Origin: a phage
Direction: 5' to 3' (one strand)
Assembly (NCBI GenBank): GCA_023732985.1
Contig: GCA_023732985.1_3946.1
Length of the DNA stretch: 64,000 nt
This document shows positions 13,025 to 14,968 of this stretch, piece after piece. Each line of letters opens with the position of its first letter. The first letter of the stretch is position 1. The position numbers and the translations under genes are program-made. Below the pieces are notes generated by a model. That model was given only the letters and a program-made list of their open reading frames with translations, had not been told where the DNA came from and did not search any database.

Positions 13025-13244
13025 AATGACCTCAAAGTTATATTAAATTTTGTATTACATTGAGTATAAAAATAAGCTATAACACCTGACTTGTCAACAG
13101 ACTTTATAGCTTATTTGGCAGATTTTTTATAAGGCTACTGCCATCCTTCCATACCCTACCTTACCACACCTAACCATACCTAACCAAACTACACCATACA
13201 ATACCTTGTTAAAAGACCCTATTTAAAGACCTTTTAAAAAGGTA

Positions 13245-13270
13245 AGTCTCATTTTAATGTAGCTGAGACT
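13245..13270. other. hairpin with conserved loop TTTTAATGTAGC, stem AGTCTCA/TGAGACT
   Basis: Identical copy at 14785-14810; variant at 13373-13396 has a different stem (ATCGGA/TCCGAT) and a near-identical loop (1 nt change), i.e. compensatory stem changes. Confidence 0.6.
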
Positions 13271-13372
13271 AACTACCCATACCGAACAACACCGCGCTAT
13301 ACCTTAGCCCACCTCACCGAGCCTCGCCCCACATCACTTAAAAACCCTCTTAGAAGACTCTTAAGTGATGTA

Positions 13373-13396
13373 ATCGGATTTTTATGTAGCTCCGAT
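13373..13396. other. hairpin with conserved loop TTTTTATGTAGC, stem ATCGGA/TCCGAT
   Basis: Covaries with hairpins at 13245 and 14785; all followed by TAACTACCC. Confidence 0.6.
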
Positions 13397-13496
13397 TAAC
13401 TACCCATACCAAGCCTAACCTGACCGCACCAAACCTTACAACACCACACCATACCTGACCATACCAAACCTCATTAAAAGACCCTGTTTAAAGACC

Positions 13497-13523
13497 TTTT
13501 AAAAAGGAGCCTCCGAAGAGGCT
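13497..13523 (-). terminator. intrinsic terminator candidate (minus strand)
   Basis: AGCCTC-CGAA-GAGGCT hairpin followed on minus strand by CCTTTTT, just downstream of stop of 13535..13975. Confidence 0.5.
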
Positions 13524-13534
13524 ACCTAGTCAAC

Positions 13535-13975
13535 TTAGAAAGGTTTTCTACGTTGCTTGTTAATGTTAGCTTTCATAGCAGCTAAATGGTTTTGCTGTTC
13601 AATCAGTCGTGAACGTTCTTGATGGCTAAGTGCCATAGTGTTCACATTCTCAATCGCTTGAGTGGCTTGCTTTAAAGCCCGACCAATCTTACCAGACATT
13701 TTACGTTTTGCAATAGTTGCTTGATGTTTAGGTTCAACCACACGATAACCAACACCCATTGAAGCAACCAGATAAATCTTCTCTTCTTTAAGAAGCTTTT
13801 CAATAAACTTCTCAAGTCGGTTTAGACGTGTAAGTGCATAAGCCTTCATTTCATCTTCGTACTTAACAATGTCGCCTTGATAAGTTGGCTTCACAATACC
13901 TAAGAAGGTATCCATCTCAGAATGTGATACAGTGTCACCGTAACTAAACTTTGCTGCTAATGCTTTTGTATTCAT
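13535..13975 (-). CDS. hypothetical protein
   Basis: 146 aa ORF flanked by structured noncoding regions. Confidence 0.4.
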   Translation of the reverse strand: MNTKALAAKFSYGDTVSHSEMDTFLGIVKPTYQGDIVKYEDEMKAYALTRLNRLEKFIEKLLKEEKIYLVASMGVGYRVVEPKHQATIAKRKMSGKIGRALKQATQAIENVNTMALSHQERSRLIEQQNHLAAMKANINKQRRKPF

Positions 13976-13977
13976 AA

Positions 13978-14580
13978 TTAAACGTTACCTTCTGAAATAA
14001 CTTCTACAGAAAAACGACCAAAGCGTGGACGCCAATCACCTACACCGCAAAGGTTACCAGCATTTTCCAGAACCATCAAGAGTTCTTCTTTGGTGATTTG
14101 CTCTTCATCGAACATCAAACCGAACTCTACAGACCAGTCACGGAAGATTGGGCGGTAGCTCATAACTCGTGCTGTACCAATCTTAACAGACTTAGCATAG
14201 ATAAAGTCTGGATTCTTAGCGAGTTCTTGTGGGTTTGCTGGGCAGTTCTTGATAGTCATTGGGAAGACTACATCTGTCAGCATAATGGCTCGGTCAATTA
14301 CCTTACCAAGTTTGTTGAGTTTTGCACCAGACTTGATACAAGCCTCAATCATCTCACCGTTCATAACAAAACCTAGTTGCTCATCGTAGTAACAAGAAGT
14401 TACCAGTTGGCTTTCTGCTAAGAGCGCATAGTCTTCGTCAGTCTTTTTACGTTTACTGGACAGAGACTTGTGATATTTTGTCAGAGGGTTTAATGGGTCT
14501 GACAACGTATCAGCGTGGCTCAGGAAAGGACGAGTACCAGTGATTTTGATATTTAACAGTTTCATAGCATTTAGCTCCAC
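13978..14580 (-). CDS. hypothetical protein
   Basis: 200 aa ORF; possible alternative start at Met6. Confidence 0.4.
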
Positions 14581-14968
14581 ACTTTAGTTTATTGTTAAGT
14601 TGTTTGTAAAGAACCCTCAACAGAAGACTCTTTAGAAACTTGGTAGATTTTTAACGTGGCTACTACCATCCACCCATACCAGACCTAACCACACCTCACC
14701 CCACCTGACCCATACCTCACATTACCATACCAAACCAGACCCCACCTCATTAAAAGACCCTCTTAAAGACCTTTTAAAAAGGTAAGTCTCATTTTAATGT
14801 AGCTGAGACTAACTACCCGCACCTTACCAAACCACACCATACACCACCGAACCGAACCAAACACTACCTTACCGGACATCACTTAAAACCCTTTTAAAAG
14901 ACTCTTAAGTGATGCTGGTGAGTACCCGTTGGTTTATGATGCTCAGTATACTCACCAAATTTTCTATG
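14581..14968. repeat. 388 bp ORF-free structured region, paralogous to 13025-13534
   Basis: Same module set: ACC-rich tract, AAAGACCCTCTTAAAGACCTTTTAAAAAGG, hairpin 14785-14810, CATCACTTAA..TTAAGTGATG inverted repeat 14878-14914. Confidence 0.7.
14785..14810. other. hairpin with conserved loop (third copy)
   Basis: AGTCTCATTTTAATGTAGCTGAGACT, identical to 13245-13270. Confidence 0.6.

Follow-up and report, generated by a model that had tools for sequence, protein, structure and literature searches.

Repeat arrays bracketing two genes of a Felix O1-like phage very probably form a type II VIPR locus with guides matching Escherichia coli satellite islands

Here, we examined two regions without open reading frames (ORFs) that bracket a pair of genes in a 64,000-nt stretch of phage DNA (the window; GenBank assembly GCA_023732985.1). 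The window belongs to a JLBYU32-like Felixounavirus, a Felix O1-like myovirus. Our analysis shows that the two regions, 13025-13534 and 14581-14968, are arrays of five guide-RNA (vrRNA) genes, two upstream and three downstream of the genes vipr and vap. We conclude with high confidence that the locus encodes a complete VIPR (Viral Interference Programmable Repeat) system of type II, because its Vipr, a protein of RAMP fold, and its Vap are identical to those of phage SUSP1 at 192 of 195 and 145 of 146 residues, respectively. The feature is real and highly non-random, and it is not a novel system since it is a near-identical copy of one already described and structurally solved.

VIPR was described as a small ancestral RAMP protein (Vipr) working with an accessory gene, vap, and with vrRNAs of about 100 nt, each a series of 9-16 YNNGG units that ends in an invariant 3' tail (bioRxiv 10.64898/2026.04.26.720920). 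In the same work, the NN dinucleotides were reported to read double-stranded DNA with a one-nucleotide skip, on either strand and without a protospacer-adjacent motif (PAM), and VIPR binding was reported to repress transcription. From small-RNA sequencing, pull-down, GFP and phage assays in SUSP1, it was reported that the vrRNAs are expressed, co-purify with Vipr and are required for satellite repression, and that reprogrammed NN positions redirect repression to new DNA targets. Guides of the SUSP1 clade are mostly aimed at an E. coli satellite phage (bioRxiv 10.64898/2026.04.26.720920).

Results

The bracketed genes encode Vipr and Vap

We scanned IMG/VR with the bare pattern CCNNA repeated six times and followed by CC, which matched more than 120 contigs. 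Many of these carry long degenerate arrays of period 5 with widely differing composition, some of them CRISPR-like in layout (L101 and L047). ORFs flanking the tracts lie mostly on the G-rich strand (135 vs 41), which places the tracts on the gene strand. An all-against-all BLASTP comparison of the ORFs located within 4 kb of the tracts revealed one dominant family of 180-210 aa, present at 30 of 55 unrelated loci, to which the 200-aa ORF of the window belongs. This large family has no Pfam domain and its members are named 'hypothetical' everywhere. Its profile matches a single solved structure, PDB 36pp, 'SUSP1 Vipr protein' (E = 2.8e-80), and the 192 of 195 identities mentioned above are to that entry. 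The window protein thus has the Cas7/Csm3-type RAMP fold with a glycine-rich loop and is a small (~20 kDa) single-RRM RAMP protein, as expected of a Vipr.

Unless stated otherwise, all features described below are on the minus strand. The original prediction delimited the first gene as 13978-14580. The ORF is confirmed, and its start is most likely the ATG at 14565, as in the homologues and in PDB 36pp, rather than the GTG at 14580, which would yield 200 aa; vipr therefore spans 13978..14565 (195 aa). The second gene, at 13535..13975, is a vap1-type accessory gene of 146 aa that belongs to phrog_5926 and to no Pfam family. Its product is the counterpart of SUSP1 ALH47068.1, encoded directly downstream of vipr in KT454805.2, and has a predicted DNA-binding fold. 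The order of the SUSP1 locus in KT454805.2 (promoter, vrRNA, vipr, vap, vrRNAs) is also that of the window, and the IMG/VR locus L016 has the same sequence as the SUSP1 locus. Pfam and PHROGs gave no function for either bracketed protein, nor for eight diverse homologues; it was through homology and structure searches that the two were identified as Vipr and Vap. The view that the two regions belong functionally with the genes that they bracket was sound, and so was the suggestion to look for small RNAs, as the regions are vrRNA arrays around vipr and vap.

Vipr homologues also adjoin vrRNA-like arrays in unrelated viruses. At L101:2250-3280, on a 388-kb contig, 9-10 units combine a conserved 35-nt hairpin repeat with a variable YNNGG tract of 85-130 nt; at L047:3330-5330, each of at least 11 units has its own TTGCAA-17-TATAAT promoter; and at L059:2202-3416, three tracts add up to about 1.1 kb of pentamers, with about 0.9 kb in the longest. 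Furthermore, many otherwise different viral contigs share a perfectly conserved 32-mer, CCTTACCTAACCTAACCTTACCTAACCTAACC, beside iteron-like GTATAC/GGATAC/GTCCAC repeats (L034, L038, L046, L050, L068, L069, L081, L097, L100, L103, L138, L139, L141 and L150). This 32-mer keeps the YNNGG frame but has no variable NN, and may be a different element, e.g. an origin or a fixed guide. Four IMG/VR matches to the 18-mer AAAGACCTTTTAAAAAGG (L008, L014, L028 and L032) are unrelated chance matches.

Five vrRNA genes with a common architecture

All the elements of the original prediction are present where it placed them, and a repeat search recovered the modules (D2, D3, D4 and D6, with palindromes I1 and I4) that the two regions have in common in the same order and that make them paralogous and modular. 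The periodicity had been misread: what was described as an ACC/CCA (GGT) triplet-periodic tract is a degenerate pentamer, CCNNA on the plus strand and YNNGG on the minus, or gene, strand. Scanning for in-phase CC at 5-nt spacing revealed five such tracts, three in 13025-13534 and two in 14581-14968, and no other place in the window; the same scan of the 23.5 kb of the JLBYU32 genome that lie beyond the window found no tract, a distribution far beyond chance. Neither region contains an ORF of at least 40 aa, the sole overlap being at the edge, with ORF 12888-13046.

On the minus strand, each module consists of an AT-rich leader of about 35 nt, 11-15 YNNGG units and a conserved hairpin tail. The two AT-rich palindromes noted earlier are indeed there, as two variants of this leader: the leaders take either the CCTTTTTAAAAGGTCTTTAA..GGGTCTTTTAA form (L1) or the CATCACTTAA..TTAAGTGATG palindrome (L2), both derived from one consensus. 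The leaders may be promoters of the individual guides, or sites at which guides are cut from a longer transcript. The conserved-loop hairpin likewise exists and is better read as the 3' tail of each repeat RNA. Tract and tail together measure 89-111 nt, about 100 nt on average, which is consistent with the RNA size of about 100 nt reported for SUSP1.

Upstream of the first guide array and of vipr lies a sigma70-like promoter, TTGACA-N16-TATACT (14945..14972), that matches the consensus at 11 of 12 positions and is conserved in relatives, vipr-less ones included. It is followed by leader L2, palindrome CATCACTTAA...TTAAGTGATG (14877..14914; I1), and by vrRNA-a, with a tract of 12 units (14817..14876; NN: CC AA AG TT TC TC GG AT GT TT AA GC) and a type A tail (14776..14816) made of GUAG, a GUCUCA/UGAGAC hairpin with loop GCUACAUUAAAA, and a U-run. 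The leader L1 of vrRNA-b (CCTTTTTAAAAGGTCTTTAAGAGGGTCTTTTAA, repeat D3; 14750..14782) overlaps that U-run. The tract of vrRNA-b comprises 15 units (14674..14749; NN: GA GG CT TT AT AA GA AT CA GG GA GT TA CT AT), one of which, at 14709-14714 (minus strand ...TATGG GTCAGG...), has 6 nt owing to an additional G. This tract is followed by a type B tail, GUGGAUGGUAGUAGCC...AAAAAUCUACCAAG (14639..14673), with stem GGUAG/CUACC.

Downstream of vap, an intrinsic-terminator-like hairpin, AGCCTCTTCGGAGGCT, with a T-run (13501..13523) precedes the three remaining guides. vrRNA-c has an L1 leader (13474..13507), a tract of 14 units (13404..13473; NN: GA TT AT CA AT GT GT AA TT GC CA TA TT AT) and a variant type A tail (13370..13403) with hairpin AUCGGA/UCCGAU. 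vrRNA-d is preceded by the same L2 palindrome as vrRNA-a (13332..13370; I4), and its tract of 11 units (13277..13331; NN: GG GA TC GA GG AA AT GC GT TC AT) ends in a type A tail (13236..13276) identical to that of vrRNA-a. Finally, vrRNA-e comprises an L1 leader (13209..13242), a tract of 12 units (13149..13208; NN: AA AT AT GT TT TA AT TA GT AA AG AT) and a type B tail, AAGGAUGGCAGUAGCC...AAAAAAUCUGCCAAAU (13113..13148). Directly after this last tail, a second sigma70-like promoter, TTGACA-17-TATTTT (13069-13097), drives the next gene, 12641-13024; relatives conserve this promoter whether or not they have the VIPR cassette.

To place these guides among those of related phages, we assembled 73 unique vrRNAs, drawn from the window and from 25 related IMG/VR loci (26 loci in total). 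Across this set, position 1 of the unit is Y (T 87%, C 11%), positions 2 and 3 are N, and positions 4 and 5 are G (81% and 97%, respectively); the entropies of positions 1 to 5 are 0.63, 1.95, 1.91, 0.88 and 0.26 bits. GGY is thus conserved and NN hypervariable, as in VIPR guides. The hairpin of the tails is supported as well. In 14 variants of the type A tail, 100% of the cells of the 7-bp hairpin are paired, which none of 500 shuffles equalled, with three compensatory pairs (A-U/G-C, G-C/U-A and C-G/G-C/G-U/A-U). In type B tails, the GGUAG/CUACC stem of vrRNA-b covaries with GGCAG/CUGCC of the others.

Guides match E. coli satellite islands under a one-nucleotide skip

The satellite and the phage have a baseplate-hub gene in common (bioRxiv 10.64898/2026.04.26.720920). 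We therefore searched 5,426 complete E. coli genomes with the phage gene located downstream of the tape-measure gene, and found that 474 carry a chromosomal 'phage baseplate protein' gene with up to 95% nucleotide identity to the phage gene. Eleven satellite islands (L152 to L162) were taken for target scans. These islands, about 11 kb long, occupy chromosomal sites such as yciI/tonB and the region of yecN/yecD. Their genes encode a large serine recombinase, tape-measure and baseplate proteins and, in many cases, an HNH endonuclease; hypothetical genes form a small operon. To search for targets, each vrRNA was turned into an NNxNNx... pattern, with which both strands of the islands were scanned.

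Four of the five guides found a match. vrRNA-e matches at 23 of 24 coded bases at L155:7287-7321 (predicted target AAAATGCTAGTATTGTATATATAAGTTAACAGAAT), where it spans the -10 hexamer and the start region of the promoter (TTGACA-17-TAGTAT) that lies immediately before the operon. The first gene of the operon holds the match of vrRNA-c, at L153:6400-6440 (24/28); the inner 12 units of this guide match at 24 of 24, the mismatches being confined to the first and last units. vrRNA-b matches a hypothetical satellite gene at L161:4278-4321 (27/30), and vrRNA-a the satellite HNH gene at L158:6361-6395 (21/24). The best-matching sites of these four guides reach 88-96% with a skip of one base only; with skips of 0, 2 or 3 bases, the best scores stayed at background (16-20). 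None of 200 shuffles of unit order reached the observed score for any of the four. For vrRNA-b and vrRNA-c, the skipped base falls on codon position 3, the register reported in general (bioRxiv 10.64898/2026.04.26.720920). No guide matches the phage's own genome above 73%.

The same rule holds for the guides of relatives. Of the 73 guides, whose 10-unit cores were scanned over these 11 islands, 48 reached 18 of 20 or more with a skip of one, and none exceeded 17 of 20 with any other spacing. Furthermore, the target of vrRNA-b keeps the regular one-nucleotide skip across the 6-nt unit, which hints that the code is set by the register of the protein and not by the spacing of the RNA.

Several points nonetheless weigh against assigning this locus to type II VIPR with all the properties of that system. 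vrRNA-d has no target above the 80% threshold of the preprint: its first eight units match at 15 of 16 in the satellite large serine recombinase gene, but the whole guide reaches 17 of 22, a score equalled by 20 of 200 shuffles. The match of vrRNA-a is limited to 21 of 24, with the skipped bases at codon position 1 and not at the wobble position. Minimum free energy folding of the five free vrRNAs gave no thermodynamic signal (z from -1.1 to +0.8). A candidate 4-bp pseudoknot helix in the tail, pairing GUAG with loop CUAC, is invariant in the 14 type A variants, so covariation cannot support it. Lastly, the source for the mechanism is a 2026 preprint (bioRxiv 10.64898/2026.04.26.720920).

Seven further integrase alleles did not improve the match of vrRNA-d. 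Its inner nine units had two matches in IMG/VR, in one homologous gene of contigs with 56% GC, which is about the number expected by chance for a roughly assumed collection size, and this candidate was rejected. The first island examined, L152, gave no significant target, and matches appeared only after several island variants had been included.

The satellites themselves were a source of further vrRNAs. Two islands, at L156:5450-5760 (-) and L162:3670-3980 (-), carry a single vrRNA of their own, with a sigma70-like promoter, 10-11 YNNGG units and an intrinsic terminator, and encode neither Vipr nor Vap. Its tail is type B-like, with a covarying stem GUCG/CGAC replacing GUAG/CUAC. This agrees with the report that satellites encode guides (bioRxiv 10.64898/2026.04.26.720920). 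In L152 (5727-8283) and at the equivalent place in L153-L162, 1.5-2.5 kb without annotated gene separate the left-end genes from the small operon; this stretch holds promoter-like repeats and, in some variants, the satellite vrRNA.

Other functions of the tracts are less compatible with these observations

The neighbouring genes are all on the minus strand, within a nucleotide-metabolism and replication block that includes genes for thymidylate synthase, dihydrofolate reductase, a helix-turn-helix regulator, DNA ligase and DNA polymerase as well as hypothetical genes. The original prediction considered a replication origin, a recombination site or generic regulatory DNA in this setting. An origin could operate if the G-rich non-template tracts formed R-loops or G-quadruplexes priming replication, like ColE1 RNA II or T4 oriF/oriG, and the tracts do lie next to the DNA ligase and DNA polymerase genes, G-rich on the transcribed-sense strand and downstream of a strong promoter. 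However, an R-loop or G-quadruplex element needs neither hypervariable NN nor fixed GGY, and the NN code here matches foreign satellite DNA under one spacing rule only. The tracts also travel with a RAMP protein across unrelated phages that have no replication genes in common around them, and many relatives have only one or two. Nor do they resemble an iteron-type origin, with fixed repeats of 17-22 bp and an AT-rich unwinding element, as the unit is 5 nt long with two free positions and modules number from one to five. We consider an origin extremely unlikely.

Alternatively, the period-5 GG tracts could act in cis as a regulatory RNA or protein sponge, binding a ring- or filament-forming partner (TRAP-like, CsrA-like or ribosome/anti-Shine-Dalgarno) and thereby controlling translation or stability of the flanking genes. 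The TRAP sites of the Bacillus trp leader, 11 (G/U)AG triplets with spacers of 2-3 nt, are cis-regulatory and likewise present a conserved trinucleotide about every 5 nt of RNA to an oligomeric protein, a periodicity typical of such binders, and the 14581-14968 region is within the 5' leader of vipr. Yet the spacers of TRAP sites carry no information, whereas in VIPR guides the spacers are the information. A sponge has no need of a variable NN code, the bound protein here is a Cas7-like RAMP, and the 13025-13534 region follows a terminator, outside any coding leader. In addition, satellite matches on both strands, a promoter among them, point to DNA targeting in trans. We give the sponge a next to negligible probability.

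The origin and generic-regulatory readings thus misfit because of the hypervariable NN and fixed GGY, the RAMP partner and the target matches: the modules are guide-RNA genes for Vipr, whose NN match the satellite under a one-nucleotide skip. A regulatory role holds only as repression, in trans, of another element's transcription. The R-loop/G-quadruplex origin and the TRAP/CsrA-like sponge, both early hypotheses, were dropped on the linkage to a RAMP family (30 of 55 loci) and on the target-matching code. Other candidates were discarded on the same grounds: a Rho rut site on antisense RNA, an anti-Shine-Dalgarno or tRNA-CCA sponge, Chi/KOPS-like polar motifs, primase sites and terminase pac sites.

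Membership in CRISPR-Cas is not indicated either, as Rfam returned no family at gathering score in the whole window, CRISPR repeat families included, and no cas1, cas2 or other cas gene is nearby. Relaxing the Rfam threshold to E values up to 10 for the region only yielded just chance matches of small nucleolar RNA or microRNA type.

vipr and vap are missing from about half of the relatives

Over 2.8 kb around the locus, the window has 100% identity to Escherichia phage JLBYU32, and matches to this segment were found in 248 Ounavirinae records. Comparison with these related phages was informative. Vipr is encoded in 118 Ounavirinae records, vs 231 that match the DNA of the region. In vipr-less relatives, the two regions are collapsed into a single one of 280-420 bp that keeps the same promoter, one or two modules and the same downstream gene; among close relatives, the number of modules ranges from 1 to 5. 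Orphan guides are found at the same position at L009:600-1060, L022:2440-2890 and L165:920-1210, the latter in phage JH2 (NC_029023.1 41875-42152). A profile hidden Markov model search of the complete JH2 genome found no Vipr homologue, and JH2 has a single tract. The orphan vrRNAs of Felix O1-like phages lacking vipr and vap, one or two per phage, are intact and promoter-driven. Furthermore, for those of L005, L015, L022 and L027, 18-19 of the 20 coded bases agree with satellite islands.

The original suggestion of a mobile or duplicated unit was partly right, because vipr-vap is absent from about half of the related phages, in which one or two orphan guides persist; the part that moves is vipr-vap, and the modules that stay are guide genes. 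The fused single region is the product expected from recombination between paralogous modules. This raises the alternative that the modules serve mainly for recombination or mobility, shuffling a two-gene cassette in the style of T4-type phages, and have no RNA product of their own. The presence of vipr-vap in only about half of the related genomes and the exactly collapsed structure of the others speak for it. The promoter-stem-loop (PeSL) mobile regulatory cassettes of T4-type phages, reportedly described by Arbiol, Comeau and Krisch in 2010, also have repeated intergenic modules flanking variable accessory genes, and a similar recombination plausibly explains the loss of vipr-vap in relatives. 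However, PeSLs are promoters and terminators without guide function, pentamer code or partner RAMP protein. In a recombination substrate, neither a strict YNNGG frame with free NN nor a covarying hairpin would be maintained, and no matches to satellite targets would be expected. Moreover, small RNAs from the near-identical SUSP1 locus have been sequenced and co-purify with Vipr. We therefore regard this alternative as very unlikely, and recombination between modules as likely a side-effect rather than the function of what we interpret as vrRNA genes.

We tentatively propose, as a possibility rather than the expected outcome, that orphan guides function with Vipr that a co-infecting, Vipr-positive relative provides in trans, the modules serving as the recombination substrate through which vipr-vap is gained or lost. 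Such use of Vipr in trans would mirror the satellites, which have their own vrRNA and no Vipr. The available text of the preprint (bioRxiv 10.64898/2026.04.26.720920) contains no 'orphan', 'in trans' or 'Felix', and its sole 'stand-alone' refers to genes and not to guides. The repeats are not mentioned in the Felix O1 genome paper or in the PAK_P1 paper.

Two unexpected database entries were also recovered. GU169904.1, 'Staphylococcus phage SA1', carries Felixounavirus DNA and its Vipr is 100% identical to that of the window, while about 300 nt of the DNA of the region match MG065664.1, 'Campylobacter phage A132', at 95.8% identity. Both are probably mislabelled or contaminated entries.

Discussion

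The closest known system is the type II VIPR of SUSP1, with which this locus shares not only nearly identical Vipr and Vap but also gene order, promoter, leaders, the two tail types, vrRNAs made of YNNGG units and targets in the same kind of E. coli satellite. The two differ in their repertoire: the window has five vrRNAs (2 upstream and 3 downstream) and SUSP1 has four (1 and 3), none of the five NN codes is the same as any of the four of SUSP1, and one guide has a 6-nt unit. The carrier genome also differs, being a Felixounavirus and not a Suspvirus.

Class 1 CRISPR-Cas effectors (Cas7/Csm3/Cmr4 with crRNA) have the same RAMP fold with a glycine-rich loop, combine a variable guide part with a conserved structured handle, periodically interrupt guide-target pairing through the protein, and are used in conflicts between mobile elements. 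In contrast, the locus described here has no array of identical repeats with unique spacers, as the variable parts are themselves pentamer repeats; its code is non-contiguous, two of every five guide bases reading two of every three target bases; each guide has its own gene; and the system is encoded by a lytic phage. VIPR is also predicted to resemble CRISPR interference-type silencing (dCas9, type IV) in binding DNA and not cutting it, with one guide here on a promoter -10/start region and the others inside genes. It differs by acting on either strand without a PAM (bioRxiv 10.64898/2026.04.26.720920), and by an effector of about 20 kDa that presumably multimerises along the guide.

By near-identity to SUSP1, the vrRNAs of this phage would be expressed as RNAs of about 100 nt and would be bound by, and co-purify with, Vipr. 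The protein would hold the GGY positions while the NN pair with double-stranded DNA, one target base being skipped per unit. Binding would repress transcription of the satellite, an effect that Vap would enhance, and the phage would thereby silence its own parasite.

VIPR is a recently described mode of RNA-guided DNA recognition, with a non-contiguous code, a RAMP protein of about 20 kDa and no PAM, and has been proposed to be ancestral to CRISPR effectors. The window independently confirms the one-nucleotide-skip code outside the model phage. In the guide-to-target map that it provides, the targets fall in a promoter of the satellite, in the gene that opens its operon, in the HNH gene, in a hypothetical gene and, probably, in the integrase gene. 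Smaller additions are the five-guide repertoire, the tolerated 6-nt unit of vrRNA-b, the non-pairing terminal units of vrRNA-c, the orphan guides of Vipr-less relatives and the satellite-borne guides with a covarying type B-like tail. The ORF-free repeat regions of Felix O1-like phages, now annotated as 'hypothetical protein' and 'repeat_region', can be labelled accordingly. At the level of phage populations, these observations suggest a cassette gained and lost between paralogous guide modules, with orphan guides left behind.

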